NCBI GenBank assembly: GCA_000991405.1
Contig: LBRL01000001.1
Location: 527,989-591,988 of the forward strand
Direction: 5' to 3'
DNA length: 64,000 nt
Source of the DNA: Candidatus Nomurabacteria bacterium GW2011_GWD2_36_14
GTDB lineage: Bacteria; Patescibacteriota; Minisyncoccia; Phycocordibacterales; UBA9973
Made by a program: the position numbers and the translations under genes
Notes under the pieces: model-generated
What the model was told of the DNA's origin: nothing
Databases searched by the model: none
The model's input: the letters and a program-made list of their open reading frames with translations, nothing else
Part shown: in pieces, positions 5,504 to 58,769 of the stretch
Layout of the letters: each line of letters starts with the position of its first letter
Numbering within the stretch: position 1 is the first letter of the stretch

Positions 5504-5574
5504 CGGGGTGTAGTATATCGGTAGTATCTATGTTTTGGGAACATAAGGGCCGGGTTCGATTCCCGGCACCCCGA
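5504..5574 (+). tRNA. tRNA-Pro (anticodon UGG), no encoded CCA
   Basis: Cloverleaf by hand: acceptor CGGGGTG/CACCCCG, anticodon stem tatgt/acata, loop tttggga giving anticodon UGG, T-arm ccggg-ttcgatt-cccgg. Confidence 0.8.
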
Positions 5575-5597
5575 CACGGTTTTTTAGTTAAATGTTT

Positions 5598-5668
5598 GCG
5601 GGATTAGTTTATCGGTAAAATAACAGTTTTCCAAACTGTGGTGAAGGGTTCGACTCCCTTATCCCGCA
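5598..5668 (+). tRNA. tRNA-Gly (anticodon UCC), no encoded CCA
   Basis: Acceptor GCGGGAT/ATCCCGC, anticodon stem acagt/actgt with loop tttccaa giving UCC, T-loop ttcgact. Confidence 0.8.
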
Positions 5669-5670
5669 CA

Positions 5671-5707
5671 ATATGAAAAAACACCCTCTAAAGGTGTTTT
5701 TTCATAT
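5671..5707. terminator. Rho-independent terminator after the tRNA pair
   Basis: atatgaaaaaacaccctctaaaggtgttttttcatat: perfect stem with flanking A and T runs (bidirectional). Confidence 0.7.
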
Positions 5708-5885
5708 TGTGCGGGATAGCAAGCCAACTGCTTGGCTTGCGTAAGGGAGGCGAAAAGCTTTTCGTTTTTCGGTATTAACCGAAACGAAAAGGTATACTGT
5801 TCTCGTAGAGAAAGACTCCACCAATCACGCGCCGTAGGGCGAGACTTCACTTATATACTGTCCTCGTAGAGGAAGACTTCCCTTT

Positions 5886-6305
5886 TTAAAGTATTATATT
5901 CTCCATCACTTTCACCCTCGCCTTCCTGTGCTCAATATCTAAATACACAACAAGCAGATCAAACTGCCACTCAATATGTCCCATTCTTTTACTTATAAGA
6001 TACGTCTCTACTACCCTTCTTAATCTTTTAAGTTTCCAAGGGTGCATATTCTCTTCGGGTCTATTTGTTACTGTTTCACCTGAAACAGTATCCAAACTTG
6101 AAACACTCTTGGACTTAACTTCTATAAAATATCTCTTCTCTTCTTTCTGAGCGATTATATCTATTTCCCCCCATTTCTTTGTATAATTCCTTTCTAATAT
6201 AGAAAATCCATGTTTCATGAGAAACGTGCAGGCGACTTCTTCCCCCAATTGCCCTATTTTCTGAGAATTTGAAGTAAAATTCTTCATAAGTGTTTCACGT
6301 GGCAC
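5886..6305 (-). CDS. yraN: YraN-family (UPF0102) predicted endonuclease
   Basis: 139 aa; motifs GEIDIIA and FIEVKSK are typical of the YraN / restriction-endonuclease-like fold. Confidence 0.7.
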   Translation of the reverse strand: MPRETLMKNFTSNSQKIGQLGEEVACTFLMKHGFSILERNYTKKWGEIDIIAQKEEKRYFIEVKSKSVSSLDTVSGETVTNRPEENMHPWKLKRLRRVVETYLISKRMGHIEWQFDLLVVYLDIEHRKARVKVMENIIL

Positions 6306-6549
6306 ACTTTTCTGTCCATAACAGACAAATCATGCCCTTAATCTAATGTATTTTATATTACACCCTTATTTAACAACATATAAATGTTAATGCTCACAAC
6401 ATGTCTCTAAAAATAATATATATAATTAATGTCTTTTATGAACAATACACACATGGTTATACACATATATCTTAATTTTCAAGGCTTTTCAGTGTGTATA
6501 AGGGACGCATAAAGGTCATTTTATAAGCACGATGAATTTATTTATTTTG

Positions 6550-6620
6550 TGCGGATACTGGGAATCGGACCCAGATTTCGTCTTTGGCAAAGACGTATTT
6601 TACCACTAAATTATACCCGC
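6550..6620 (-). tRNA. tRNA-Gly (anticodon GCC), no encoded CCA
   Basis: The reverse complement reads GCGGGTATAATTTAGTGGTAAAATACGTCTTTGCCAAAGACGAAATCTGGGTCCGATTCCCAGTATCCGCA; anticodon loop ttgccaa gives GCC. Confidence 0.8.
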
Positions 6621-6624
6621 GAAT

Positions 6625-7302
6625 TTAAAATTCTAGCCGAGAAGACAATTCCAACCATTTTAAAATTTTCTTCTTAACTACAACAATACTCGATATTATA
6701 CTAATTCCAACTCCATATTGCAACTTTTTTGTTTTTTCTTTACCTTTAATAACTTGAGTTTTATGAAAATTAGAAATAGAGATACCCACTTCACCTGACC
6801 ACTTATTCGTGCATTCATTGGGATCTAAGTCTGGATATATAATTAATGCAATCTTTATATTTTCCTTTGTAATATATAGGTATTTCTCTGCAAATTTTAT
6901 AAATATCTTATGTATATAAAATTCAGAATTACTAACTCTACTCATATTGTTACTTCTTTTATCTCCTTCTCCTGCATAAATCATTAATCCTGCTATAAAT
7001 AAAGGGTCTTTTATAAAGATTTGAAACTCTTTCTCTGCTTCTATTTCTACTTGTTTATATTTATCTGCAAGCATTCTACTTCTGCCTATATGCAATAATT
7101 CCAAACGCTCTGTACTTAATTTAATATTTTTAGTTATATTATTTCTTTTAATATGTGTTGACCATTCTTCATTTCTAAACCAGTCACACAAAGTACTTCT
7201 TGATATATTAATCTCATCTTGAATTTCTCTATATGATTTGCCGTCTCTTCTTAATTTGAATACTAAGTCTTTGTCCTGTCTCATACTAGTACAGTATACC
7301 AC
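6625..7302 (-). CDS. HTH-domain protein with a weak LAGLIDADG-like motif; possible homing-endonuclease-like or mobile-element relic between tRNA genes
   Basis: 225 aa. The N-terminus has a transposase/resolvase-type HTH (LRRDGKSYREIQDEINISRSTLCDWF). The central FIAGLMIYAGEGDK loosely resembles the LAGLIDADG motif. It ends 5 nt from tRNA-Gly(GCC) and lies between tRNA genes. Confidence 0.4.
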   Translation of the reverse strand: MVYCTSMRQDKDLVFKLRRDGKSYREIQDEINISRSTLCDWFRNEEWSTHIKRNNITKNIKLSTERLELLHIGRSRMLADKYKQVEIEAEKEFQIFIKDPLFIAGLMIYAGEGDKRSNNMSRVSNSEFYIHKIFIKFAEKYLYITKENIKIALIIYPDLDPNECTNKWSGEVGISISNFHKTQVIKGKEKTKKLQYGVGISIISSIVVVKKKILKWLELSSRLEF

Positions 7303-7347
7303 AGTGGTTCTGCTTTGAAAAGTAATTAAATAGTGTATAATAAATGT

Positions 7348-7370
7348 ATTAATAATTAATAATTAATAAT
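7348..7370. repeat. (TTAATAA)n heptamer array
   Basis: attaataattaataattaataat immediately upstream of tRNA-Arg. The same heptamer arrays recur at 24301-24396, 42970-43009, 43364-43464, 51050-51158 and 54961-54982. Confidence 0.7.
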
Positions 7371-7442
7371 GCACTCATGGTGAAATGGATATCACGACAG
7401 TCTTCGGAACTGTTATTGGGGGTTCGAATCCCTCTGGGTGCA
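7371..7442 (+). tRNA. tRNA-Arg (anticodon UCG), no encoded CCA
   Basis: Acceptor GCACTCA/TGGGTGC (one G-U pair), D-stem gtga/tcac, anticodon stem acagt/actgt with loop cttcgga giving UCG, T-loop ttcgaat. Confidence 0.75.
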
Positions 7443-7455
7443 CAAATAGTTTCAT

Positions 7456-10557: not shown

Positions 10558-11358
10558 ATGTATATAATGATAAACATGAAAAAAGTATTGCGACCAGAAA
10601 CAGAAAAGGCTCTACTGGAGGCTGGATTTTCTGACAAAGAAATAGCTGTTTATGTAGCCCTTTTGTCGCTAGGGAAGGGTATCGTCACTAAAATTGCTAG
10701 AACTGCATCTATAAGTAGAACAACTACTTATGATGTATTGGATAATTTATCACAAAAAGGATTAGTGAAAATTTCTGGTAAGGAACCAAAGCAGGAATAT
10801 GTGGCTGAATCACCAGAAAGATTGGAAAAGTTTCTAAGTGAAGAAATTGAAATAAAAAACAATAGTTTAAATAAAGTGAAGTACATTATTCCAGAACTTT
10901 TTTCTATTTATAACACCAAAGAAATTCCTCGTGTTCGATATTATGAGGGAATTGATGGATTGAAAAGAGCACTTGAAGATACTTTATCAAAAGGTGACAC
11001 AGAAATCCTGGCATCAGGCGGAGCTGAAGATATGTTTGAAGCTGTTGGGGAAGGATATTCTAGAGAATATTTTCGAAAAAGGGTAGAAAAAAATATTAGT
11101 ATAAGAGGGATTGCCTCTGGTGATTCAGGAACAATGAAAGTCGCTGAAAGAAATATGGAGGAATTGAGAGAAATATTGATAGTGCCCAATGATAAGTTTC
11201 ATTTTTCTGTGGAAACGAATATTTATAATGATAAAGTTTTAAATATCTCTTGGAAAGAAAAGTTTGCCGTAATGATTGAGAGTAAAGAAATCGCCGATGC
11301 TCAGAAGAAAGTATTTGAACTGGCTTGGATAGGGGCAAGGGAAATGGGGAGGAAATAA
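10558..11358 (+). CDS. TrmB-family transcriptional regulator (paralogue 1)
   Basis: N-terminal winged HTH (EIAVYVALLSLGKGIVTKIARTASISRTTTYDVLDNLSQKGLV) followed by a TrmB-type C-terminal domain. It shares the identical stretch GKEPKQEYVAESP with the ORF at 21171-21947. Confidence 0.75.
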   Translation: MYIMINMKKVLRPETEKALLEAGFSDKEIAVYVALLSLGKGIVTKIARTASISRTTTYDVLDNLSQKGLVKISGKEPKQEYVAESPERLEKFLSEEIEIKNNSLNKVKYIIPELFSIYNTKEIPRVRYYEGIDGLKRALEDTLSKGDTEILASGGAEDMFEAVGEGYSREYFRKRVEKNISIRGIASGDSGTMKVAERNMEELREILIVPNDKFHFSVETNIYNDKVLNISWKEKFAVMIESKEIADAQKKVFELAWIGAREMGRK

Positions 11359-11497
11359 AAAAAACAAGCAGGGCATCCGAAGATACACCTGCTGTTTCAC
11401 TAATTACTTCTCCTTTAACCAACAATTAAAAAATGATTTTTTGAGAGGCCCTCAAGCCTACTCGGTATTCAGTATTTCAATTTAATTGTACAGTAAA

Positions 11498-20421: not shown

Positions 20422-20461
20422 AGTGTAACACTTTGCAACGGCCGTTTGTAAGTGTTACACT
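20422..20461. promoter_or_regulatory. 40-bp near-perfect palindrome P1 (candidate operator / insulator)
   Basis: agtgtaacactttgcaacggccgtttgtaagtgttacact; shares the 30-bp core AACACTT-N3-AACGGCCGTTTGTAAGTGTT with P2 at 21094-21133. Confidence 0.6.
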
Positions 20462-20467
20462 ATAGAA

Positions 20468-21055
20468 ATGAAGAAAAAGGCTCAAAATAATAAAACTACG
20501 TTTAAAAAAGAAAATCTTAAACAAGGAGCTCAAACCTTGGGTAATATACTACTTGCGGGTATAGCTATCGCTGGGATAGTAGGTGTCGCTACTGTCGCTC
20601 CAAATGCAATGCAATTGGTGAAATATTTTATACCAGAAGATGACATCAAGCGTCATTATAAATATAGGGCAAACCATAGTCTAAAAAAATTAATTACAGA
20701 TGGTTATATTCAAGAAAAAATAGTAAACGGAAGAAAAACATTTTCACTAACAAATAAAGGAAAATTAAGATATGAATCTCTTAAAGAAAAGAGGGTAACT
20801 AGATGGGATGGAAAGTGGAGACTTGTATCTTTTGATGTTTATGAAAAGAACAGAAACAAAAGAGACTTACTACGAAAAGAATTACAATCATATGGGTTTC
20901 AAATGATTCATCAAAGCACGTGGGCATATCCATATCCTTGTGATGAATATATTGCTTTACTAAAATCAGATTTATCTTTTGGTAAGAATGTTCAGTACAT
21001 GCTTGTAGAATACTTGGATATGCACATGGAATTAAAAAGACTTTTTGATTTATAA
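20468..21055 (+). CDS. PaaX-C-terminal-domain-like protein with an N-terminal TM segment
   Basis: 195 aa; RWDGKWRLVSFDVYEKNRNKRDLLRKELQSYGFQMIHQSTWAYP matches the PaaX C-terminal (VapD/Cas2-like fold) pattern W-x-L-V-x-F-D-hPE...LR..L...GF..L..S-hW. Confidence 0.5.
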   Translation: MKKKAQNNKTTFKKENLKQGAQTLGNILLAGIAIAGIVGVATVAPNAMQLVKYFIPEDDIKRHYKYRANHSLKKLITDGYIQEKIVNGRKTFSLTNKGKLRYESLKEKRVTRWDGKWRLVSFDVYEKNRNKRDLLRKELQSYGFQMIHQSTWAYPYPCDEYIALLKSDLSFGKNVQYMLVEYLDMHMELKRLFDL

Positions 21056-21093
21056 AAGTCCTAGACTTATATATAATTTATTCAAAATTACTA

Positions 21094-21133
21094 CTTGCAA
21101 CACTTACAAACGGCCGTTTGTAAGTGTTGCAAG
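21094..21133. promoter_or_regulatory. 40-bp perfect palindrome P2
   Basis: cttgcaacacttacaaacggccgtttgtaagtgttgcaag equals its own reverse complement; it lies between the convergent PaaX-like and TrmB-like genes. Confidence 0.6.
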
Positions 21134-21170
21134 TGGGCAAACACAATAAATGGGGTAAATAGTCATTATC

Positions 21171-21947
21171 TTATATTTCTTTATCTAATCTTTTGGCTTC
21201 AGCCCAAGAGAGCTCGTAGATCTTCTTCATAGCGTCGGCGATTTCGGCACTTTCTATAATGATTCCAAGTTTCTCTCTCCAAGAAGCAATCATGACTTTG
21301 TTGTTATAAATATTTATTTCAGGATGAAATCCAAATTCTTTATTTGGAATAATTAAAGACTCACGCATTTCTTCATTATCTAAGCTTGATCTATTTCTTG
21401 CTTCAGGTGATTCAGGGAATATTGCTCTTATCTTTATTCCTTTCTTTGCTCTTCTTTTATAATACTCAGGAAAATATAAAGGAAGTGTTGATTCAACATC
21501 TTCAACACTAGCATATGCTAATATATCTCCTTGAGAAGTTAGTGTATCCTCGTAGACTTTTTGTAATCCATCTTTACCTTCATAAAACAAAACCTTGGGT
21601 CTTTCAATTACATTATGTATTGATTTTAATTCTGGAATTATCTTCCTTGCTTCATTTATGAACTTTTGATCTTCTTCTATTTTATTTTGTAAAAGTTTTT
21701 CTATTTGATTAGGAGATTCGGCAACATATTCTTGCTTGGGTTCTTTCCCTGATACTTTCACTAGCTCTTTTGCTGATAGGGAAGCAAGCACGTGATAGCC
21801 AGTAGGACGATTAATTCCTGCCTTTCTTGAGATCTGTGTAACCGTTCCTTTTCCAAGAGAAAGTAATGCCAAATATACCACAACTTCCTTCTCGGAGAAT
21901 CCTATATATTCGAGACTTTTCTTTATATCTAAATTTTCGTTTTCCAT
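21171..21947 (-). CDS. TrmB-family transcriptional regulator (paralogue 2)
   Basis: 258 aa; wHTH (EVVVYLALLSLGKGTVTQISRKAGINRPTGYHVLASLSAKELV) and the shared block GKEPKQEYVAESP. Confidence 0.75.
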   Translation of the reverse strand: MENENLDIKKSLEYIGFSEKEVVVYLALLSLGKGTVTQISRKAGINRPTGYHVLASLSAKELVKVSGKEPKQEYVAESPNQIEKLLQNKIEEDQKFINEARKIIPELKSIHNVIERPKVLFYEGKDGLQKVYEDTLTSQGDILAYASVEDVESTLPLYFPEYYKRRAKKGIKIRAIFPESPEARNRSSLDNEEMRESLIIPNKEFGFHPEINIYNNKVMIASWREKLGIIIESAEIADAMKKIYELSWAEAKRLDKEI

Positions 21948-22049
21948 ACATTAAGTATATATTAAAGCATAGTAATTTGTCAATACATGCGAACAAAATA
22001 ATATATATTTTAATTTATCTATATTTTATAAATACATATTTTTATTATT

Positions 22050-22559
22050 TTGATAATATTACTTGACAATATATTTCAATTACTCCATACTATAAATAAA
22101 TTAAATCATTCAACCATGAAAAAAATTGTAAAGGGAATTAATGAATTCCGCCAAGAAGCTACAGAAGCTTTTCTTGCTTATCAAGAGTGTAAATACGACT
22201 TGAGTAAAATTACCCCGTTATCAACAGGATACTTCCCATTATCTTTCAGAAATGAAAATTGTTACATCGGAGAGATACAGCTGGAAGAAACATCTTATGT
22301 ATGTGATGCGATTGTCCCAAATTTTGAGATTTCTAATGTTATCTTGGAAGCTGAGAAAATATTAGATGGTAGTCGATTTATATGGAGAGTTATTCTAAAG
22401 GTAAATTTTTTTGGTTTATGTCTGTGTGTTTACCACACAAGTCAAAAACATTCATATTATGTTGGTGTTCCAAATAATTTTAGTCCGGTCTTCAGAATAA
22501 TATCAAAAGAAGATAACCCAAAAATTAAAAGAATGGACAATATGATTTGTGCTTACTAA
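22050..22559 (+). CDS. Hypothetical protein (start more likely at the MKKIVKG codon, about 22113)
   Basis: ORF of 148-169 aa in a very AT-rich context; no motif. Confidence 0.35.
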   Translation: MIILLDNIFQLLHTINKLNHSTMKKIVKGINEFRQEATEAFLAYQECKYDLSKITPLSTGYFPLSFRNENCYIGEIQLEETSYVCDAIVPNFEISNVILEAEKILDGSRFIWRVILKVNFFGLCLCVYHTSQKHSYYVGVPNNFSPVFRIISKEDNPKIKRMDNMICAY

Positions 22560-22644
22560 TTTTTAGACCAGAGGGGTAATTCCTCCTCTGCTTTATAAAG
22601 TTAATAAAAAGTGTATTATTATAAATATAACTAAATACTAATTT

Positions 22645-24300
22645 ATGACAAAAGAAAATTGTAAAACTTGTGAGAAGGAGTTTGTGATAAGGGATGAAGA
22701 TCTTGTTTTTTATGAACAAATGAAAACTGTTCCTCCTTTATATTGCCCAGAGTGTAGAATGGCGAGGCGTTTAATGTTTCGTAATGAAAGAACTTTATAT
22801 AAAAGAACTTGTGATTTATGTAAAAAGGATATGGTTACACTTTACACTCCCGAATCACCATATGTTGTTTACTGTAGTAAATGTTGGTGGAGTGATAATT
22901 GGAACCCAAAAGAGTTTGCGTTAGATTATAATCCCAATAAAAAATTCTTTGATCAATATAAAGAATTGCAACTAAAAGTTCCACGTTTAGGAATAATGGA
23001 AATCCAAAATGTAAGAAGTGAATACACAAATGGTTCAGCAGAAAATAAAGATTGCTATTTGGTTTTTGCTTCTGATTTTAATGAAGATTGTTTATACGGA
23101 AGACTTATGCAAAGAAATAAACAGTCGATGGATTGTGCTTTCCTACACGAATCAGAGCTTTGTTATGAGTGTATAGATTGCCGAAAATGTTTCAAGTGTA
23201 TGTATTCTCTACAATGCCAAGATTCTACTGATTTATTGTTTTGTTATAATCTAAAAAATTCAAACAATTGTATTTTCTGCACAAATGGAAGAAATCTTTC
23301 AAATGCAATATTAAATATAAAATATACAAAAGAAGAATATGAAAAGAAAAAGACAGAAATATTAAAAAATTACGAAAGTATTGAACAGGCTAAAAAAGAA
23401 TTTGAAGAATTAAAAAGTAAAACTATTAAAAAATTCGCGACCCAGACGAAATGTCACAATGTCACTGGAGATTATTTACACAACTGCCAAGAAGGAGTGA
23501 GATTATTTGATACATATGATGCAAAAAATTGTTCCTATATGAAAGATATTGATGGTGCAATAGATAGTATGGATTGTAACAATGCTTATGATAAACCAGA
23601 GTTTATATATAATGTAATGGGGGCATTACAAGGAAGTAAGTTAAAAAATTCTGCTTTTGTCTTCTATTGTAATGAAATTGAATACTGTGATAATTGTCAT
23701 CATCTATCAAATGGTATTGGCTGTATTTCTGTACGAAAGGGGAATTACATGATTTTCAATAAAGAATATTCCAAAGAAGAATATATGGAGTTGAAAGAAA
23801 AAATAGAAGAACAGTTTAAAAAAGAAGGAATATTGGGACAATTCTTTTCACCTGAAGTTGCACCATTCGCTTATAATGAATCCTTAATTCATGATTTCTT
23901 TCCTCTATCTAAAGATGAAGCAATTAAAAGGGGTTACAAATGGCAAGACAAAACTACTGGAACCTTTGGTAAAGAAACGATTAAAAAAGGAGAAATTTCT
24001 AACTCTGTAAACGATGTCAATGAAAATATTTTAGATGAAGTATTGATTTGTGAATCATGTAACAAAAATTATAAAATAGTTGAAGCTGAATTAACTTTTT
24101 ATAAAAAAATGGGGCTTCCTATTCCTCATAAAGATTTTGAATGTAGACATGAAGATAGAATGAGGAAAAGAAACGGAATGAAATTGTATCATAGATCTTG
24201 TATGAAAGAAGGATGTGAAAATGAGTTTGAAACAACTTACAGCCCAGACAAAAAAGATGTCATATATTGTGAGAATTGCTATCAGAAGGAAATATATTGA
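22645..24300 (+). CDS. Cys-rich protein with duplicated terminal zinc-ribbon modules
   Basis: 551 aa with more than 40 Cys. N-terminal module: CKTCEKEF-x-I-x-DEDLVFYEQM-x-PPLYCPECRMARRLMFRNERTLYKRTC-x-C. C-terminal module: CESCNKNY-x-I-x-EAELTFYKKM-x-PIPHKDFECRHEDRMRKRNGMKLYHRSC...YCENC. A central run of CxxC repeats lies between them. Confidence 0.6.
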   Translation: MTKENCKTCEKEFVIRDEDLVFYEQMKTVPPLYCPECRMARRLMFRNERTLYKRTCDLCKKDMVTLYTPESPYVVYCSKCWWSDNWNPKEFALDYNPNKKFFDQYKELQLKVPRLGIMEIQNVRSEYTNGSAENKDCYLVFASDFNEDCLYGRLMQRNKQSMDCAFLHESELCYECIDCRKCFKCMYSLQCQDSTDLLFCYNLKNSNNCIFCTNGRNLSNAILNIKYTKEEYEKKKTEILKNYESIEQAKKEFEELKSKTIKKFATQTKCHNVTGDYLHNCQEGVRLFDTYDAKNCSYMKDIDGAIDSMDCNNAYDKPEFIYNVMGALQGSKLKNSAFVFYCNEIEYCDNCHHLSNGIGCISVRKGNYMIFNKEYSKEEYMELKEKIEEQFKKEGILGQFFSPEVAPFAYNESLIHDFFPLSKDEAIKRGYKWQDKTTGTFGKETIKKGEISNSVNDVNENILDEVLICESCNKNYKIVEAELTFYKKMGLPIPHKDFECRHEDRMRKRNGMKLYHRSCMKEGCENEFETTYSPDKKDVIYCENCYQKEIY

Positions 24301-24396
24301 GTAATTAATAATTAATAATTAATAATGTAATATTAAAATGCCTCGGCGTCGCCGAGACATTTTAATTCGTAATTATTAATTATTAATTATTAATTA
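24301..24396. terminator. Terminator hairpin flanked by inverted (TTAATAA)n arrays
   Basis: (taattaa)x4 - ttaaaatgcctcggcgtcgccgagacattttaa - (ttattaa)x4, between convergent genes. Confidence 0.65.
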
Positions 24397-24399
24397 TAC

Positions 24400-24735
24400 C
24401 TATCTCTTCTTTGCTGAATAAGGAGCGGTAGCGGGAGTGAAGACGGGGGGATTGAGGTTTACTTTTTTCTTCTTTACAACGGGCTTTTTCTTTACTACGG
24501 CTTTTTTCACGGGAGCTTTCTTTACTGTAGTGGCCTGTTTTGTAACTGTAGGCTTTGGTGCCCCTGTATTTTCCTTTGCTAAAACTACAGAAGCAGGAAG
24601 AGCTTGTTGTGCCGTTGCCAAAACCTTACTTTCTTCTTTCTTTTTACTCAAGTAACCATCAGAAGCTAAAACGCCAAAAGAAGAAGCTGTCGCTACAAAA
24701 ATTAAAATTATTAAAACAATTGTTTTTTGTTTCAT
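24400..24735 (-). CDS. Small secreted Lys/Val-rich protein
   Basis: 111 aa; signal peptide (IVLIILIFVATASSFGVLA) and a KKAPVKKAVVKKKPVVKKKK low-complexity tail. Confidence 0.5.
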   Translation of the reverse strand: MKQKTIVLIILIFVATASSFGVLASDGYLSKKKEESKVLATAQQALPASVVLAKENTGAPKPTVTKQATTVKKAPVKKAVVKKKPVVKKKKVNLNPPVFTPATAPYSAKKR

Positions 24736-24751
24736 AAACTATAATTCGATA

Positions 24752-26002
24752 CTATAACCCATTGCTATTTTTAGGTAAATTGCGATATGGATTTGACTTA
24801 CCACCTCGGTATCCTATGTGTACATGGTTACCTGTGGATCTACCTGTCGAACCGACATACCCTATGACGTCTCCCTTCTTCACCACTTCTCCGGCACTTG
24901 CTGCCACTTTACTCATATGACCGAAGATAGCTTGTGCTCCATCATCAAAGTCCACAACTACGTAGAGTCCATATCCTCCATTATAACCAGAACCGTCAGC
25001 AATGAGAACCTTACCATCCTGAATAGCATATATAGGAGTACCCTTTGGAGCAGCAAAGTCGTAAGCATTATCATCGTGAAGCTTCTGTGACACTCTACCG
25101 ACACCCTTGGGGAATGGCCAAATATAATCACCGGTAATGCCATTACCGCTAGATATTTGTTCTGGGCTGGCTTGAGATTTCTCTGTCTTCTCTTCTGTTC
25201 CTATTGATACCTTTACCTCTGTTTGATCCTTCTCTTCTTTGACAATAGGGCGAGGGGTCTCTACCTTCTTCACGACAGTACCACCTGGAACTATGATCTT
25301 GTCGCCAATCTTTAAATTCTTGTCTGTAATATCGTTGTATTCAGAGATATCTTTAGCATCTGCTTTATAAGCTTTAGCAATTGAGGATATAGTATCGCCC
25401 TTTTTAACGGTATAAGGCACGCCATCTACAGGAAGAATTGTGAGTATTTGCCCTACTTTTAAAGCGTTATTTTTAATATCTGTATTGGCATAAAGGATAG
25501 TATTCTTGGATATACCGAATTTACTTGCTACTCCCCCTATGGTGTCTCCCTTCACAACTGTATACGTAGTAATCTTATCAGACGAAGATATGTATGAGTT
25601 AATTTCTCCATCTGTCCCTTGTAAATCATCTGGAACAAGAGCTCCATCTTCAGTCATAGGGACAGTACTGCCCGCCTTCATACTTTTCATATCTGGATTG
25701 ATAGAGGTCTCTAAAAGAGGAACATTTTGAGAATTTGGAACGAAGTCCTTGCTGTTGTTATTTGTCTCTTCTATCGCCTGAGCCTTTGACCCAACTACAC
25801 TTGCCATAAGATCACTAAAAAAGCCAGCATTGGCCACTGTAGGCACGCTAGCTATAAGAGGAATTATGAGGGCTAAAGTATAAGCCTTAATAGTATAAGA
25901 CTTGAGAAACAACGATATTTTCATCTTTTGACTAGTTTGCGGAGGCAAGTCATCAATAGAATCTTTTGAGTTTTGTTTTAATTGCATAATTAGGTGGGAC
26001 AC
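24752..26002 (-). CDS. LysM-domain M23-family peptidoglycan endopeptidase
   Basis: 416 aa; two LysM repeats (YTVVKGDTIGGVASKFGIS..., YTVKKGDTISSIAKAYKAD...) and a C-terminal M23 domain (HxxxD-like DFAAPKGTPIYAIQDGKV...GSTGRSTGNHVHIGY). Confidence 0.85.
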   Translation of the reverse strand: MSHLIMQLKQNSKDSIDDLPPQTSQKMKISLFLKSYTIKAYTLALIIPLIASVPTVANAGFFSDLMASVVGSKAQAIEETNNNSKDFVPNSQNVPLLETSINPDMKSMKAGSTVPMTEDGALVPDDLQGTDGEINSYISSSDKITTYTVVKGDTIGGVASKFGISKNTILYANTDIKNNALKVGQILTILPVDGVPYTVKKGDTISSIAKAYKADAKDISEYNDITDKNLKIGDKIIVPGGTVVKKVETPRPIVKEEKDQTEVKVSIGTEEKTEKSQASPEQISSGNGITGDYIWPFPKGVGRVSQKLHDDNAYDFAAPKGTPIYAIQDGKVLIADGSGYNGGYGLYVVVDFDDGAQAIFGHMSKVAASAGEVVKKGDVIGYVGSTGRSTGNHVHIGYRGGKSNPYRNLPKNSNGL

Positions 26003-33776: not shown

Positions 33777-33822
33777 AATAATCTAGGATATTTTGTATTT
33801 AAATAGTATAATAAAAGTGTAA

Positions 33823-50299: not shown

Positions 50300-51034
50300 T
50301 TAATTATTCTCTAATGATCTTCGAATGTACCATTCTTGAATTATAGTGAATATATTACTTATAACAAAATATAATGCAACTGCAGCAGAAATTTGCCATG
50401 AAATGAAAACAATAAATATAGGCAATATGTACTTGATGTTGGTCTGCATGCTTCCCGAAAGTTCATCTTGAAAGCTTTTGACTTCTGGTGTTGCCCCAGC
50501 AGGAATAACTTCAACCTTTGGTTGAACAGGGGAGGCAAGGTAGCCTTGGATAAATTGAGTAATACCGGCTAGAATGGCTAGCACAAGGCTCTTGCCACCA
50601 AGCTCAATAAGTCCCAAGAAGTTGGTATTCATAGCTGTAGGCTTGGCTATGAAGGTATATATGGCACCTGTATCAAGAGATAGCCCCTTAAGAAATACAT
50701 AATACAATGCAAAGATAACTGGAAGCTGTATAAGTACGACAATACATCCTGAAAAGGGATTGGTGCCGTATTTCTTGTATAATTCAAAGGTTTTCTTGGC
50801 TTGTTCCTCTTTGTTTGGGAAGTCTTTCTTTATCTGCTTGATCTCGGGTTCCATCTTCTTCATAAGTATCTGGCTCTTTATAGACTTCTTGGTCAAGGGA
50901 GCAAGGGCAAGCTTTATAAGGATAGTAACTAGTATAATAGCAAAACCAACATCACCAAAAGTGACATTGTTTATAATAAAAATAAGGATATTATAAATTG
51001 GCTGATAAAAAATAGAATTCCATATTGCTGACAT
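50300..51034 (-). CDS. yidC: Membrane protein insertase YidC (short form)
   Basis: 244 aa; conserved YidC/Oxa1 core with multiple TMs; gene order yidD-yidC-jag. Confidence 0.85.
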   Translation of the reverse strand: MSAIWNSIFYQPIYNILIFIINNVTFGDVGFAIILVTILIKLALAPLTKKSIKSQILMKKMEPEIKQIKKDFPNKEEQAKKTFELYKKYGTNPFSGCIVVLIQLPVIFALYYVFLKGLSLDTGAIYTFIAKPTAMNTNFLGLIELGGKSLVLAILAGITQFIQGYLASPVQPKVEVIPAGATPEVKSFQDELSGSMQTNIKYILPIFIVFISWQISAAVALYFVISNIFTIIQEWYIRRSLENN

Positions 51035-51049
51035 TCACCTATTGTAGCA

Positions 51050-51158
51050 TAATAATTAATAATTAAAAATTAATAATTAATAATGTAAAAAACCTAAGCA
51101 AAGCTTAGGTTTTTAGTGTATTGTGTTTAAATTATTAATTATTAATTATTAATTAATT
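51050..51158. terminator. Hairpin flanked by inverted (TTAATAA)n arrays
   Basis: (taataat)n - gtaaaaaacctaagcaaagcttaggttttt - (attatta)n; the same architecture as 24301-24396. Confidence 0.6.
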
Positions 51159-51359
51159 TAGTGGATCATAGTGCTTCTTCTGCCAAGGGTGACACCTGAG
51201 AATTCTTCTGAAACCCTTATAAATGCCTATAATTGAGCCGTATTTAATAATTGCTTCCTTTGTATATTCTGAACATGTAGGAAGAAAAACACATGAACTA
51301 TGTGACCTGAGGGGAATCTTCTGATAGAGATTTATAAGCTTAATAAATACTTTTTTCAT
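51153..51359 (-). CDS. yidD: Membrane protein insertion efficiency factor YidD
   Basis: 68 aa; CVFLPTCSEYTKEAIIKYG and RILRCHPW are YidD signatures. Confidence 0.85.
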   Translation of the reverse strand: MKKVFIKLINLYQKIPLRSHSSCVFLPTCSEYTKEAIIKYGSIIGIYKGFRRILRCHPWQKKHYDPLN

Positions 51360-51365
51360 GTATAT

Positions 51366-51686
51366 TTATATAATCTTGGCTTTCTTGAGTATTAAGTCTA
51401 TATCCTTCTTGATATCAATAGAGCTTGCTATTAGAGCTTCTTTCTTGTAGAAAAGTATGCCGGCACATGACTTCAAGTCATATGAACGAAGGATATTATA
51501 GCCTTTTCTACGTAGGGAGTTCCTTTTTACGGCTGTTTTCGCGATCTTTTTAGGAGCAACCACAGCGTACTGGGGGGTATCTTGCTTAAGATAGCGCAAA
51601 ATAAAAAACGAGCCAGAAACGACACTTCCTTTATCCATGATATTCTGGAAGACACTTCTAGTAACTCGCTTTTTCTTTGGGAGCAT
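51366..51686 (-). CDS. rnpA: Ribonuclease P protein component (probable start at the internal Met; the called ORF extends to 51773 and overlaps rpmH)
   Basis: MLPKKKRVTRSVFQNIMDKG... is a typical RnpA N-terminus; it sits between rpmH and yidD. Confidence 0.75.
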   Translation of the reverse strand: MLPKKKRVTRSVFQNIMDKGSVVSGSFFILRYLKQDTPQYAVVAPKKIAKTAVKRNSLRRKGYNILRSYDLKSCAGILFYKKEALIASSIDIKKDIDLILKKAKII

Positions 51687-51693
51687 AGTAGTG

Positions 51694-51834
51694 TTACTTT
51701 GCAATAGAAACCTTGGCACGACCCTTCTGGCGACGTGCTTTAGTGACCTTTTTACCGCCGGGAGTTTTCGCACGAACTAAGAATCCATGAGTTTTAGCTC
51801 TTTTTCTTTTATTTGGTTGATATGTTTGAGACAT
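51694..51834 (-). CDS. rpmH: 50S ribosomal protein L34
   Basis: Hand translation of the minus strand gives [46 protein letters not shown] (46 aa); not in the ORF track because it is under 60 aa. Confidence 0.9.
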
Positions 51835-51950
51835 ATGCAAAATATATACTATATTTGACAAAAATGCAATATAGACTCAAAACATATCCACATGTTATTA
51901 ACAGCTTAATTAAGACTTTCAATTATTGTGTTTTTTAAAACACAGGTATA

Positions 51951-53309
51951 ATGGGAAACATGAACACAAAAGAACTCTGGGAAAAGTGCCTTTCTGAGGT
52001 AGAACTAAGCATATCAAAAGCCAACTTTACAACTTGGTTTAAAAATACATCTATCGTTAGAGAAGAGGCGGGAACACTTTATGTGGGAGTTCCAAACGAA
52101 TTTGTAAAAGACTGGCTATACAACAAGTTCCATAAGTTAATATTGAAAACAATAATAGGCCACGAAGAGGGAGTAAGAAGTATAGAATATATAATCCACA
52201 AGAATGATAGCTCTCCTAAAAATATTGAAAATACTATCCTAAAACAAGTTAATATTAATAAAGAACTTCCTTTAAGTGATCTATATTTAAACAAAGACGA
52301 TAACCTAAATCCAAAATACAACTTCAACTCATTTGTCGTTGGTCCTTTCAATGAACTTGCGTATGCTGTGGCCCAAGCGATCATAACAAACCCCGGACAG
52401 AATTACAATCCATTCTTCGTTTATGGTGGTACAGGACTCGGCAAGACACATATGATCCAAGCAATAGGTAATACTATTAAAATAAAACACCCACACAAGA
52501 AGATCTACTACGTCTCTCTAGAACGTTTTGCTATCGACTATATAAATTCAATTGCCAATAAAAACCCAAACTCTTTCAAAGAAAAGTATAGGAAGTATGA
52601 TGTCATCATTATGGACGATATACAATTTATATCTGGTAAAGACAAAACACAAGAAGAACTCTTCCATCTTTTCAATACCTTATACGAAAACAACAAGCAA
52701 ATAATCTTCTCCTCTGATAAACACCCTAACTTCATTCAGGGATTAGAAGATAGACTTCAATCTAGGTTCGCTTCTGGTATGACTGTCCAGATAGTAGAGC
52801 CAGACTATGAATCCAGAGTTGCAATTATAAAGGCCAAATTTGAATCTACTAATTGTATTATAGAAAACGACATAGTTTCCTATTTGGCAGAGATACTGGA
52901 AGGGAATATTCGTGAATTGGAAGGGAGTTTAAACACTATTATCTGCCAGTCTCAACTTAAAAATAAGTCTTTATCTTTAAGTGAAATAAAGCTTCTTATT
53001 AAGAACAATATCAAACCTAAAAAGACTGTAGCTATCAAGGATGTGGTGTCTGTAATAGCCAACCATTATGGAATATCTGACGAAATAATATATGAGAAGA
53101 CTCGCAGGAAAGAAATAGTGAAAGCAAGACAAGTAGCAATGTATATACTTCGTGAGGATTTCAACATCTCATATCCACTCATAGGTAGTAAACTGGGGGG
53201 AAGAGACCATACAACAGCCATACACTCGCACTTAAAAATTAAAGAAGAATTAAAAACAGACCCCGCCCTCTTACAAGAAATAGAAAAGATAAGAATAATG
53301 TTCAAGTAA
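51951..53309 (+). CDS. dnaA: Chromosomal replication initiator DnaA
   Basis: 452 aa; AAA+ Walker A GGTGLGKTHMIQAIGN, sensor motifs, and the C-terminal DnaA-box-binding HTH (RQVAMYILRE...GGRDHTTAIHS). Confidence 0.95.
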   Translation: MGNMNTKELWEKCLSEVELSISKANFTTWFKNTSIVREEAGTLYVGVPNEFVKDWLYNKFHKLILKTIIGHEEGVRSIEYIIHKNDSSPKNIENTILKQVNINKELPLSDLYLNKDDNLNPKYNFNSFVVGPFNELAYAVAQAIITNPGQNYNPFFVYGGTGLGKTHMIQAIGNTIKIKHPHKKIYYVSLERFAIDYINSIANKNPNSFKEKYRKYDVIIMDDIQFISGKDKTQEELFHLFNTLYENNKQIIFSSDKHPNFIQGLEDRLQSRFASGMTVQIVEPDYESRVAIIKAKFESTNCIIENDIVSYLAEILEGNIRELEGSLNTIICQSQLKNKSLSLSEIKLLIKNNIKPKKTVAIKDVVSVIANHYGISDEIIYEKTRRKEIVKARQVAMYILREDFNISYPLIGSKLGGRDHTTAIHSHLKIKEELKTDPALLQEIEKIRIMFK

Positions 53310-53525
53310 ATAATAAGGGTGTGGAAAAGATGTGTTTAAAGAAATTAAAAATGTGGACAACTTGATGGATAAATATAAAAGTAATTTTTATTAGAAAATA
53401 ACAAAAATAAAGAAATAAGAAAATTAAAAACAAGATATATAAAATAAAGACATAAAAGTAATCCACATATTCACATATATAATAGTAATAATAGATTATA
53501 TTAATAGATTAATAACAAATACACT
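53310..53525. promoter_or_regulatory. Candidate oriC (dnaA-dnaN spacer with DnaA-box-like 9-mers)
   Basis: Very AT-rich 216 bp containing tgtggaaaa (53320), tgtggacaa (53352), gatggataa (53364) and taatccaca (53459), each 1-2 mismatches from TTATCCACA or its reverse complement. An additional aTATCCACA lies at 51884 upstream of dnaA. Confidence 0.6.
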
Positions 53526-54623
53526 ATGAAGTTAGAATGCTCAATAGAAAAAATTAAAAATGCACTCATGATAGTAGATAGAATAACTGGTAAGAATCTT
53601 ACCCTTCCTGTACTGGGATCAGTTCTATGGGTAGCAACAGGTAAGACTCTTAAACTCCGTGCCACAAATCTAAATATAGGTATAGAAATGGAAGTGCCAG
53701 CTAAAATAGAAAAAGAAGGGGTTGTAGCTATAAGAAGTGATATACTCTCGTCTCTATTCTCAGTTCTTTCTGGAGATTCCTTTGTAACTTTTGAACTAGT
53801 AAATGACAACTTGTCTGTAAAAACAAAATCAAATACTATAATCTTGAAAAGTATTCCAAACGATGATTTCCCTACAATTCCACTCATAGAAGGTGAAGTT
53901 CTAAACATACCAGCTAAAAAATTCATAGAAGGAGTTAAGTCTGTATATTATAGTGCTTCTATATCAGATATAAAGCCTGAGATAGGAAGCGTCTATATAT
54001 ATCCAGAAGACGACATGCTTGTGTTTGTGGCGACTGACTCTTTCCGACTTGCAGAAAAGAAGGTGAAAATAAAACAAAAACTTTCTTTTAATGGGATACT
54101 TATACCATTTAAAAACACAGTTGAGATTATTAAGGTCTTGGATGGAGTAGATGGAGATATAAAGATAACATTACAAAAGAATCAAATTTCTTTCTCTTCA
54201 GACAATATATATCTAACATCTAGAATTATAGATGGAGCATTCCCTGACTATAAACAAATAGTGCCCAAAGGAGGAACTACAGAAGTGACACTCTTGAAGC
54301 AAGACTTTCTTTCATCTTTAAAAGTATCAAACATATTCTCTGATAAATTCAATCAAATTACTTTCAATATTAAACCTTCCGAAAAAGTTTTTGAAATAGA
54401 AGCAAAGAATACAGATATAGGAGAAAATATAACATTCCTAGCGTCAGCACTCTCGGGGGAGAATGTAACTCTTAACTTCAACTACAAATATATAGTAGAC
54501 TGCTTCCCATCTATATCTACTGATTCACTTGTACTTGAGTTTAATGGTAGTAATAGGCCTATGATACTGAGACCTATTGGAGATTCCTCGTTTATGTATT
54601 TGGTAATGCCAATGAATAGATAA
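53526..54623 (+). CDS. dnaN: DNA polymerase III beta sliding clamp
   Basis: 365 aa; three-domain clamp; it follows dnaA directly. Confidence 0.9.
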   Translation: MKLECSIEKIKNALMIVDRITGKNLTLPVLGSVLWVATGKTLKLRATNLNIGIEMEVPAKIEKEGVVAIRSDILSSLFSVLSGDSFVTFELVNDNLSVKTKSNTIILKSIPNDDFPTIPLIEGEVLNIPAKKFIEGVKSVYYSASISDIKPEIGSVYIYPEDDMLVFVATDSFRLAEKKVKIKQKLSFNGILIPFKNTVEIIKVLDGVDGDIKITLQKNQISFSSDNIYLTSRIIDGAFPDYKQIVPKGGTTEVTLLKQDFLSSLKVSNIFSDKFNQITFNIKPSEKVFEIEAKNTDIGENITFLASALSGENVTLNFNYKYIVDCFPSISTDSLVLEFNGSNRPMILRPIGDSSFMYLVMPMNR

Positions 54624-54627
54624 TGTT

Positions 54628-54688
54628 CCATAGGTCGGACCTAGGGACAAAAATTTAAAACACAAAAGACCCTAGGTCCGACCTATGG
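54628..54688. repeat. 61-bp nested-palindrome element (family C), copy 2
   Basis: ccataggtcggacctaggg-acaaaaatttaaaacacaaaag-accctaggtccgacctatgg, starting 5 nt after the dnaN stop. Confidence 0.8.
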
Positions 54689-57518: not shown

Positions 57519-58730
57519 ATGAACAAAGTAATAGTAGATGAAAAGAAAATAGATGAATTGCTAACTAGGGGGATTTCTTTTATTTATCCAACCAAAGAAT
57601 TCTTAGAGAATAAAATTAAAAAAGGAGAAAAACTTACAATATACTTAGGCATAGATCCGACTGGACCAACTCTTCACTTGGGGCACGCTATTCCTATTAA
57701 AAAATTAAGTGAATTTCAAAAAGCTGGACACCAGATAATACTTCTCATGGGTGACTTCACAGCCATGATAGGAGACCCTACTGATAAAGGTGCTGCCCGT
57801 AAACAACTTACTCACAAAGAAGTAACGTCTAATTTAAAAAATTATAAAAAACAAGCCAGTAGTCTGATATCTTTTACGGGCAAGAATCCTGCTAAAATTA
57901 CATTTAATTCTACATGGTTAGGAAAAATGAATTTTGAAAAAGTTATATCACTTGCTTCTAATATGACCGTTCAACAAATGCTTGAGCGTGATATGTTTGA
58001 GAAAAGAATGAAAGAAGGTAAACCAATATATCTTCATGAATTTCTGTACCCACTTATGCAGGGGTATGATTCTGTCGCTATGGATGTAGACGGGGAGATT
58101 GGTGGCAACGACCAGACCTTCAATATGCTTTGTGGACGTGATCTTATGAAAACAATGAAGAATAAAGAGAAGTTTGTAATAACAATGAAGCTTCTTGAAG
58201 ATAACTCTGGTAAAAAAATGGGTAAAACAGAGGGTAATATGATAGCTCTTTCTGATTCACCAGAGGAAATGTATGGAAAAGTTATGAGTTGGACTGATGG
58301 GATGATAATTCCGGGGTTTGAACTTTGTACAAATATACCAACTTTTGAAATAGAAAAAATGTCTAAGGACATACATTCAAATCTAGTTAACCCTAAAGAT
58401 TTAAAAATACGTCTTGCTCGAGAAATAGTTACAACTTTTCATAATGAAAAAAAAGCTAAAGAAGCACAAGAGAAATGGGAAAACACTTTTTCTAAAAAAG
58501 AAATTCCAGAAGACGTACAAGAAATAAATGCAAAGAAAGGTGAACCCTTGATAGACGTATTGCTAAATAATAAGATTGTAACTTCTAAGAGTGACTTTCG
58601 TAGGCTAGTGGACGAAAAAGCAATTACAAACTTAGATACAGATGAAAAAGTTTCATCGCATACAGAAGTTGCTATAGAGGGGGTCTATAGAATAGGGAAG
58701 AAAAGATTTTGTAAAATAGTAATTAGTTAA
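57519..58730 (+). CDS. tyrS: Tyrosine--tRNA ligase
   Basis: 403 aa; HIGH-type motif (HLGH in PTGPTLHLGHAIP) and KMSKS-type motif (KMGKT); C-terminal S4-like domain. Confidence 0.9.
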   Translation: MNKVIVDEKKIDELLTRGISFIYPTKEFLENKIKKGEKLTIYLGIDPTGPTLHLGHAIPIKKLSEFQKAGHQIILLMGDFTAMIGDPTDKGAARKQLTHKEVTSNLKNYKKQASSLISFTGKNPAKITFNSTWLGKMNFEKVISLASNMTVQQMLERDMFEKRMKEGKPIYLHEFLYPLMQGYDSVAMDVDGEIGGNDQTFNMLCGRDLMKTMKNKEKFVITMKLLEDNSGKKMGKTEGNMIALSDSPEEMYGKVMSWTDGMIIPGFELCTNIPTFEIEKMSKDIHSNLVNPKDLKIRLAREIVTTFHNEKKAKEAQEKWENTFSKKEIPEDVQEINAKKGEPLIDVLLNNKIVTSKSDFRRLVDEKAITNLDTDEKVSSHTEVAIEGVYRIGKKRFCKIVIS

Positions 58731-58732
58731 AT

Positions 58733-58763
58733 TAAAATGTGCGAGGCCTTGCCTCGCACATTT
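58733..58763. terminator. Bidirectional intrinsic terminator
   Basis: aaaatgtgcgagg-ccttg-cctcgcacatttt between convergent tyrS and the acidic small ORF. Confidence 0.7.
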
Positions 58764-58769
58764 TAATTA

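Follow-up and report, generated by a model that had tools for sequence, protein, structure and literature searches.

Two kinds of described systems resemble the locus reported here. PaaX of Escherichia coli represses its own promoter, Px, through a 39-bp operator of the form TGATTC-N27-GAATCA (PMC9493321). In RAYT-REPIN systems of repetitive extragenic palindromic (REP) sequences, a single-copy gene carries its own flanking palindromes, of one type per paralogue, and is inherited mostly vertically (PMC3337134). We analysed a stretch of 64,000 nucleotides, hereafter the window, from Candidatus Nomurabacteria bacterium GW2011_GWD2_36_14 (contig LBRL01000001.1, positions 527,989 to 591,988). It contains a gene for a small protein of the PaaX kind, here called mini-PaaX, enclosed by two related palindromes, P1 upstream and P2 downstream. 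Such pairs travel with the mini-PaaX gene across the phylum, and each pair very probably serves as the cognate cis-sites of the protein whose gene it encloses. A literature search found no paper on the mini-PaaX family or on its phylum-wide, paralogue-specific palindrome-gene-palindrome layout.

Both palindromes had been proposed in a sequence-only reading of this DNA, and both are real. P1 (AGTGTAACACTTTGCAACGG/CCGTTTGTAAGTGTTACACT) lies exactly where it had been placed. P2 (ACTTGCAACACTTACAAACGG/CCGTTTGTAAGTGTTGCAAGT) is the perfect palindrome that had been described, but it extends one nucleotide further on each side than the 21094 to 21133 first assigned to it. P1 ends 6 nt before the ATG of mini-PaaX, and P2 starts 37 nt past the stop codon and ends 36 nt from the stop of a convergent TrmB-family gene (21171-21947). 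The two are separated by 630 bp, with one gene in between. The three mismatches of P1 sit 6-8 nt off centre, in the zone that is non-complementary across the family, and a palindrome at this position is kept in orthologues. The 30-nt core common to P1 and P2 occurs exactly twice in the window (with 0 and 3 mismatches) and gave 0 matches in 100 shuffles. P1 and P2 are the only copies of the palindrome in about 84 kb of this genome, made up of the window and 10 kb beyond each of its ends on the same 800-kb scaffold. P1 and P2 are likewise the only CGRYCG-centred palindromes with complementary outer arms found by scanning the window, and no CGRYCG-centred palindrome was found in the 10 kb added past each end.

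Palindrome pairs accompany mini-PaaX genes across the phylum

We compared the flanks of 79 family genes, each from a different GTDB species and 28-91% identical to the window protein at the amino acid level, by aligning the 160 nt upstream of each gene with the 200 nt downstream; a score of at least 34 was taken to indicate similar flanks. This score was reached by 85% of the 79 family genes, compared with 3% of 146 neighbouring genes (Mann-Whitney p=5e-28), and the median scores were 48 and 19, respectively. The flanks match in palindromes 34-48 bp long, of which one lies just 5' of the start codon and the other 14-104 nt past the stop. Their sequence differs from lineage to lineage, while the two copies round any one gene are alike. 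The palindrome of the window lineage reads TGTAACAC...ACGGCCGT...GTGTTACA, and those of other lineages include ATGTACCTT...ACGCTATAGCGT...AAGGTACAT, TTACCACATAT...CGGTCG...ATATGTGGTAA and TTTTAGACAAAACACCACGATCGTGGTGTTTTGTCTAAAA. The downstream palindrome is present irrespective of the orientation of the next gene, which is co-directional in some cases and convergent in about half. Since the neighbours vary in this way, the pair of palindromes belongs to the mini-PaaX gene and not to the genes beside it.

The palindromes are also specific to the paralogue. In seven genomes with two mini-PaaX paralogues, there is a separate palindrome for each. The proteins of loci L039 and L049, which come from one genome, are 72% identical and have different arms (TTACACTAT versus TTACCACATAT), whereas those of L047 and L049, from separate genomes, are 71% identical and have the same arms. 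This is the pattern that would be expected if each protein read its own site and cross-talk were selected against. Relatives that consist of the Cas2-like domain only (107 aa, no wing; two at L044 and one at L055) are flanked by palindromes of 22-30 bp, which comprise the centre and short arms, for example AAATTTCACGATCGTGAAATTT.

Gene and palindromes are present or absent together, as a comparison of related genomes revealed. At loci L148 and L149 the gene order is that of the window (PNPase, a 306-aa protein, a DksA-like protein, ComM, a variable slot, TrmB, a 147-aa open reading frame (ORF), a zinc-finger gene) and TrmB is 81% identical to that of the window, but the slot between ComM and TrmB is occupied by a Lactamase_B_3 gene (264 aa), and no family palindrome was found in 20 kb. 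Thus, the gene and both palindromes were gained or lost as one unit, and the absence of the palindromes from an orthologous slot that lacks the gene counts in favour of the cognate-site reading. Elsewhere in the clade, the ComM-mini-PaaX arrangement is stable in about 13 loci.

The internal structure of the sites is that of blocks. Across the family, the mismatch between the two arms varies with the distance from the centre. The central dinucleotide, which can be any of the four R-Y combinations, has a mismatch of about 43%; the figure is at most 9% at positions 2-4, where the centre is CGRYCG or CTATAG, 11-48% at positions 5-11, and at most 10% in most columns of positions 12-20. In the window clade, 46 distinct sites share as conserved blocks ACGGCCGT, a T/A pair at +/-9 and TGTAACA at 12-18, and positions 6-8 and 10-11 are complementary in just 28-46% of them, which is the background level. 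The variants of the half-site (CTTGCAG, CTTACAG, CTTAGTG, GATGCAG and others) are drawn independently on the left and on the right. Since the inner bases are non-complementary and the halves independent, no continuous RNA or DNA stem is conserved; judged from the alignments, the block structure fits a protein site and not a continuous stem. Just outside the core, complementarity in the AT-rich clade is 43-46%, versus a background of about 33%. Covariation of these outer bases was not upheld in the AT-rich clade and was weakly upheld in a clade of GC content about 0.5 represented by nine sites.

The sequence-only reading had offered the PaaX-like protein as one possible owner of P1 and P2 as operators. 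This proposal gained support, both from the lineage-specific pairs that homologues keep whatever their neighbours and from the geometry of the sites. The centres of the outer half-sites are about 30 bp apart, versus 33 bp in TGATTC-N27-GAATCA, and by this analogy the mini-PaaX site appears compatible with the layout of the PaaX operator.

Three further observations concern these loci. The Lactamase_B_3 gene (L148 10824-11618, also in L149), of the metallo-beta-lactamase fold, has no homologue in the window. The Cas2-domain-only genes at L044 (1422-1745 and 3956-4279, 2.5 kb apart) and L055 (3929-4258) encode 107-109 aa without anchor or wing and are flanked by AAATTTCACGATCGTGAAATTT. Finally, L051 (1-2600) carries three tandem genes for membrane proteins of 131-133 aa directly 5' of mini-PaaX, and the same palindrome follows each of them; the copies at 665 and 1261 are identical.

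The mini-PaaX protein and its proposed action on the palindromes

The mini-PaaX protein begins with a lysine-rich N-terminus, which is followed by a hydrophobic helix of 23 residues, a winged helix and a domain of β-α-β-β-α-β topology (Table 1). The ORF had been described as similar to the PaaX C-domain, which proved incorrect. The match is to PaaX_M (PF20803), the central Cas2-like domain, and covers residues 112-186 (70.1 bits with a cut-off of 24, E=1.7e-19); the protein stops 9 residues past it and is without a PaaX_C domain. The PaaX equivalog model TIGR02277 scores 35.5 bits, with a cut-off of 264.55. The N-terminal domain of PaaX gave no Pfam match in mini-PaaX; a profile alignment (E=0.002) pairs residues 67-154 of mini-PaaX with residues 57-146 of E. 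coli PaaX (PDB 8a39), including the recognition helix, the wing and the WDGKW motif. The AlphaFold2 (AF2) model, with a predicted local distance difference test (pLDDT) score of about 80 in the core, predicts a helix followed by a β-hairpin wing. A Foldseek search with this model returned E. coli PaaX (8a39) as the best match (E=2e-4), followed by Rv0674 and then by many Cas2 and VapD structures. By these comparisons we regard mini-PaaX as a new architectural variant of the PaaX kind, which fails the tests for PaaX proper.

Table 1. Coordinates in the window of mini-PaaX, its predicted protein regions and the flanking palindromes.
Feature	Position	Strand	Basis or description
P1, upstream palindrome	20422-20461	.	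20-nt arms, 17/20 complementary; proposed operator over the gene's own promoter
Promoter-like element inside P1	20433-20461	+	TTGCAA 20433-20438, 17-nt spacer, TACACT 20456-20461, 6 nt to ATG
Mini-PaaX gene, 195 aa	20468-21055	+	PF20803 PaaX_M, weak TIGR02277 PaaX, weak Cas2; Foldseek PaaX
N-terminal hydrophobic helix, putative membrane anchor, aa 24-46	20537-20605	+	Translation; AF2 helix aa 15-43
Winged-helix DNA-binding region, about aa 57-105	20636-20782	+	AF2: helix 57-77, wing strands 81-94, helix 96-104
Cas2-like PaaX_M domain, aa 112-186, presumed dimerisation module	20801-21025	+	Pfam, AF2, Foldseek, conserved motifs
P2, downstream palindrome	21093-21134	.	Perfect, 42 bp; between the convergent 3' ends of mini-PaaX and TrmB; proposed second binding site

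The Cas2-like domain harbors the invariant motifs WDGxWR, FD123, E126 and YPYPC(D/E)E. D123 is the acidic residue at the end of β1 that is equivalent to the catalytic Asp of Cas2, and E. coli PaaX is also acidic at this position. Judged from conservation, D123/E126 and the YPYPC(D/E)E motif may serve either catalysis or folding and dimerisation alone. A hydrophobic segment (Kyte-Doolittle value > 1.6) is present in 92% of 143 representative homologues, in which lysine and arginine residues lie on both sides of the helix (4.6 before and 3.0 after), so that the topology is ambiguous. The family is very large, with 6,077 representative clusters (50% identity) at E<=1e-3 and 3,066 at E<=1e-10. At least 582 matches were found among GTDB species genomes. 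The 80 loci that were kept all come from metagenome-assembled genomes, and most are named as Patescibacteria-group or candidate-division lineages. The 800-kb metagenomic scaffold encodes exactly this mini-PaaX protein, whose relatives carry the names Paceibacterota, Nomurabacteria or Patescibacteria.

The promoter-like element inside P1 is largely conserved. A TTGCAN-N17/18-TACA[CA]T sequence followed by 6-11 nt to the ATG is present in 12 of the 14 orthologues compared, the exceptions being L141 and L007. Among the 34 family genes whose ATG lies at most 31 nt from the palindrome centre, 25 have a TAnnnT ending 5-8 nt before the ATG, versus 34 of 150 neighbouring genes. In neither set are Shine-Dalgarno-like motifs common. 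A promoter inside P1 with its -10 element near the ATG would imply a leaderless or nearly leaderless mRNA.

We propose that one mini-PaaX dimer binds one palindrome of about 40 bp. The two winged helices, their DNA-binding part presumably cytoplasmic, would recognise the outer arms (TGTAACAC / GTGTTACA), whose centres are about 30 bp from each other; the Cas2-like dimer would sit on the conserved centre ACGGCCGT. The short palindromes of the wing-less relatives, with their centre and arms, point to this division of labour. Occupancy of P1 would block RNA polymerase and shut off the leaderless transcript, in a negative autoregulation like that of E. coli PaaX at Px. P2 would be a second site for the same protein and would most likely act as a boundary, either as a roadblock or as a hairpin stop for the convergent mini-PaaX and TrmB transcripts; as an alternative or in addition, it could be the looping partner of P1. 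In this more specific form, with autorepression at P1 through an operator embedded in the promoter and P2 as boundary or looping partner, the proposal is made with moderate confidence.

Several observations speak against these proposals. A site past the stop codon of the regulator's own gene is unusual for a repressor, and the downstream site does not simply serve as an operator for the next gene, which is convergent in about half of the cases. The promoter hexamers of P1 match the consensus at just 8 of 12 positions and are absent from the output of a generic promoter scan. By the positive-inside rule, an N-terminus that faces the cytoplasm is slightly favoured (4.6 versus 3.0 lysines and arginines), which would leave the DNA-binding part extracellular. 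On the sense strand of the downstream copies, G:T mismatches outnumber A:C mismatches (54 versus 29), which hints at RNA-level selection. Among the palindromes that occur apart from the gene, described below, four lie between convergent 3' ends (L085, L109, L135 and L143), where promoter blocking makes no sense. Lastly, the clade of GC content about 0.5 has nine dispersed copies with an identical 34-bp core (apart from L132, with one degenerate position per arm), in which the outermost pairs covary. This looks more like copy-and-paste than like operators that evolved independently.

Solo palindromes and alternative readings

Palindromes of this family also occur without the gene. A scan of Joint Genome Institute metagenomes with the pattern GYAACAC-N7-CGGCCG-N8-TGTTRC gave 62 loci, of which about 12 are chance matches in GC-rich DNA and 11 represent a mini-PaaX gene together with both of its sites. 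At 18 or more loci of low GC content, a clear family palindrome stands alone, without a mini-PaaX gene for at least 700 nt around it. Two such solos share a contig with a mini-PaaX gene (L097, at a distance of 11.4 kb, and Ga0172379_10000112, on a contig of 212 kb). The solo sites lie in short intergenic regions, namely upstream of a dgkA-like gene, after pyrH, rpmA, rsmA or glyS, and upstream or downstream of a 570-aa zinc-finger gene whose homologue in the window is at 22645-24300. Some of these positions recur across species. Long contigs have 1-3 pattern matches per 35-250 kb, roughly one solo per 50-150 kb, which corresponds to a handful per genome. In 530 kb of 71 other loci, 4 extra copies were found, two of them from tandem gene duplication. 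At the orthologous positions of the window, no solo palindrome was found downstream of rsmA (33777-33822) or of the TrmB paralogue TrmB2 (11359-11497). The solos fit a small extra set of binding sites, which could be a regulon, boundary elements or tethers; they may also have a REPIN-like origin. Occurrence at many unrelated loci had been named beforehand as the mark of just another repeat family. Solos do sit at unrelated intergenic sites in relatives, but they are few, and there are none in the 84 kb covered here.

Two side observations concern the positions of solos. The window gene at 22645-24300 encodes a 551-aa cysteine-rich, treble-clef-like zinc-finger protein, and its homologues at L098, L109, L116, L117, L128, L130 and L143 have a solo palindrome 38-142 nt upstream or 49-53 nt downstream. 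At L109 (3720-3805) and L133 (1309-1425), a single intergenic region contains two different palindromes next to each other, both with the same type of centre, which suggests sites of two paralogous proteins at one spot.

Mobility of the locus was considered in several forms. The sequence-only reading had suggested that P1 and P2 might be the ends of a small mobile cassette. The joint gain or loss of the gene and its palindromes agrees with this in a weak sense, but no transposase, target-site duplication, second copy or viral match was found at the locus, and synteny is kept in about 13 relatives. The sequences preceding P1 (...AACCA) and following P2 (GGGCA...) differ, hence the lack of a target-site duplication. 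An insertion sequence or a miniature inverted-repeat transposable element was rejected for want of a transposase domain, of target-site duplications and of more than a single copy. The copy number is far too low for a high-copy REP family or for a DNA-uptake sequence, and both were rejected. A phage-borne or other mobile origin gained no support, since no relatives occur on 2.9 million viral contigs and the PHROG database gave only a weak 'transcriptional regulator' match for mini-PaaX.

An unlikely alternative to the cognate-site reading is a REP/RAYT-like or recombination element, in which the Cas2-fold protein would nick or recombine its palindromes, the flanked gene would be the master locus or an excisable cassette, and the solos would be products or attachment sites. 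Four properties parallel RAYT-REPIN systems (flanking palindromes, a paralogue-specific type, a single copy and mostly vertical inheritance; PMC3337134). The intergenic solo copies in relatives, including those between convergent 3' ends, the identical cores in the 9 dispersed copies of one clade, the free combination of left and right half-site variants, the joint loss of gene and palindromes at L148 and the invariance of D123, the equivalent of the Cas2 catalytic Asp, would all suit such an element. However, the position of D123 is acidic in E. coli PaaX as well, a plain repressor, and neither Pfam, the conserved columns nor the Foldseek matches revealed an HUH/Y1 motif or a known recombinase fold. 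The copy number is very low (only the pair in 84 kb, and the 4 extra copies in 530 kb), P1 and P2 are without target-site duplication, and several solo positions recur across species (upstream of the dgkA-like gene, beside the zinc-finger gene and after pyrH). A membrane anchor would also be odd for a transposase. Were the protein to act enzymatically on the palindromes, it would represent a novel class of domesticated element and connect the Cas2 fold with palindromic repeats in a new way. Rather improbable, too, is a new self-flanked DNA element of Patescibacteria, in which a membrane-associated protein of the Cas2 kind would act on its own palindromes of about 40 bp, by cutting, recombining or copying them, and thereby seed the solos. 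It would amount to a RAYT/REPIN-like or floxed-cassette-like system on a Cas2 fold and would bear on how Cas2 and palindromic repeats first met.

We give little credence to a role as a chromosome-membrane tether or organiser, in which the anchored protein would hold DNA at the membrane through a few palindromes, with secondary effects on transcription. Such a role would resemble Noc with its Noc-binding sites (NBS) and RacA with ram. The hydrophobic helix at the N-terminus of 92% of the homologues speaks for it, as do the small number of sites, their dispersal over every intergenic context, including convergent 3' ends, and the position of the locus about 30 kb from dnaA-dnaN/rpmH, near the replication origin. 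Members without a transmembrane segment or a wing (L110, L044 and L055), however, still have flanking palindromes, this genome has just the two gene-flanking sites in 84 kb, and the tight placement of the upstream site on the -10 element and ATG points to regulation of the gene itself.

It is very unlikely that the palindromes act as RNA hairpins independently of the protein, the 5' hairpin masking the start codon and the 3' one serving as terminator or stabiliser, with a likeness due to shared ancestry or gene conversion. The predicted hairpin energies are -33 kcal/mol for P2 (z = -8) and -18 kcal/mol for P1 (z = -3.6), which agrees with this explanation, and so does the excess of G:T over A:C mismatches in downstream copies. 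The statement that neither palindrome has the T-tract of an intrinsic terminator holds for P1 and for the plus strand of P2, for both of which a canonical intrinsic terminator was rejected. It does not fully hold for the minus strand of P2, where the palindrome is followed by the weak tail AGTAATTTTG and passes a lax terminator scan; a secondary role as a hairpin terminator for TrmB is possible there. On the other side, positions 5-11 are not complementary family-wide, G:T mismatches hardly differ in number from A:C mismatches in the upstream copies (55 versus 44), which therefore lack a G:U bias, and the paralogue's own sequence on both flanks is left unexplained. The ordinary terminators of this genome (e.g. 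11358-11398, 24330-24370 and 58730-58768) are GC stems with a T-tract and are unlike P1 and P2. A known RNA family was rejected as well, Rfam having given only sub-threshold matches to miRNA-like hairpins.

That P1 and P2 are operators of the adjacent TrmB-family regulator (TrmB1; PF01978), another early suggestion, can be dismissed: the gene does lie convergent and immediately downstream of mini-PaaX, as had been noted, and TrmB proteins are dimeric winged helix-turn-helix regulators, but outside the window's clade TrmB does not stand beside mini-PaaX, L005 and L136 keep both palindromes with TrmB truncated or lost, four orthologues (74-86% identity) without a mini-PaaX neighbour have no such palindromes within 20 kb, no P1/P2-type palindrome was found near TrmB2, and the promoter region of TrmB1 has a different inverted repeat.

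This repeat (21977-22069) is imperfect, 42 nt long and located between TrmB1 and the next ORF. It carries two TTGACA promoters that face outward (11/12 and 10/12 matches), and as a candidate operator of TrmB it is to be preferred to P1 and P2. TrmB2 (10558-11358) is indeed a paralogue of TrmB1, with 51% identity and a shared identical stretch, SGKEPKQEYVAESP, which counts 14 residues and not the 13 first reported. At L005 and L136, independent deletions that start inside TrmB1 (at about 4780 and 6095, corresponding to 21310-25811 and 21352-23980 of the window) take out TrmB1 and part or all of the zinc-finger gene, and the region downstream of P2 appears deletion-prone. The breakpoints are not at the edge of P2 but inside TrmB, at about 21310-21352.

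The other neighbours of mini-PaaX are PNPase, the DksA-like protein, ComM, the zinc-finger protein and an M23 peptidase. About 30 kb from the locus, dnaA (~51951-53309) and dnaN (53526-54623) lie beside an AT-rich repeat block (51053-51155) that is probably oriC; at L153, rpmH, rnpA and yidD lie just beyond the 51000-54650 region. An AT-rich repeat family (TAATTAATAATTAA...) occurs at 24293-24398, 51053-51155 and 58730-58768, round short GC hairpins (AAAATGCCTCGGCG/CGCCGAGACATTTT); its members look like ordinary bidirectional terminators unrelated to P1 and P2. Four tRNA genes (Pro-TGG, Gly-TCC, Gly-GCC and Arg-TCG) are clustered at 5504-7443.

Comparison with known systems

Patescibacteria, or candidate phyla radiation (CPR), make up a large share of bacterial diversity and have tiny genomes, and gene regulation in them is barely known. 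Here a very large CPR family, which counts more than 6,000 clusters (50% identity), is defined together with the probable DNA target of each member. The sequences thereby provide a probable catalogue of protein-site pairs whose specificities appear to diverge fast and to be mutually orthogonal. PaaX-type reading of 40-bp operators, contact of a Cas2-like domain with DNA and the fencing of a regulator's own gene on both sides become testable questions.

Loops between two operators, as in lac (O1/O2) and gal (OE/OI), and roadblock repressors likewise involve two copies of an operator a few hundred base pairs apart, one at the promoter and one downstream. In mini-PaaX, unlike in the lac and gal loops, the second site lies past the stop codon. 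Regulators of the ToxR/CadC type and Noc share with mini-PaaX a single hydrophobic segment combined with a DNA-binding domain and palindromic targets. Mini-PaaX differs from them in that the anchor is N-terminal to the DNA-binding part, with about 20 residues ahead of it, and in that there is no sensor domain.

Cas2 and VapD have in common with mini-PaaX the β-α-β-β-α-β fold with an acidic end of β1, and Foldseek gave TM-scores of 0.45-0.66 (target-normalised). The Cas2 profiles score below their cut-offs (PF09827, 22.5 versus 23.8 bits; TIGR01573, 22.4 versus 24.5), and mini-PaaX joins the domain to a winged helix and an anchor. Gene calls over about 6 kb on either side of mini-PaaX include no cas1, and the window showed no short-spaced repeats arranged in a CRISPR-like array. 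Membership in a CRISPR/Cas2 system was rejected on these three grounds, the sub-threshold scores, the lack of a called cas1 and the lack of an array.

RAYT-REPIN systems resemble the mini-PaaX loci in their own flanking palindromes, in a palindrome type per paralogue, in vertical inheritance and in intergenic solos (PMC3337134). They differ in fold (HUH-Y1 versus Cas2/PaaX_M) and in copy number, with tens to hundreds of copies versus a handful. In addition, REP sequences are hairpins with a GTAG tag, whereas the mini-PaaX sites appear as double-stranded composite sites.

PaaX of E. coli and Pseudomonas (8a39, 3l09, TIGR02277) has 316 residues, versus about 190 in mini-PaaX, which is without PaaX_C and in which the hydrophobic anchor replaces the first PaaX helices. 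Mini-PaaX further differs from PaaX in the conserved central palindrome of 6-8 bp within its site, in having sites on both sides of the gene and in that none of its neighbours is a paa gene. Both proteins have a winged helix followed by a Cas2-like domain with the WDGxW motif, and the operator of PaaX, like the mini-PaaX palindromes, is long and has widely spaced inverted half-sites (PMC9493321).

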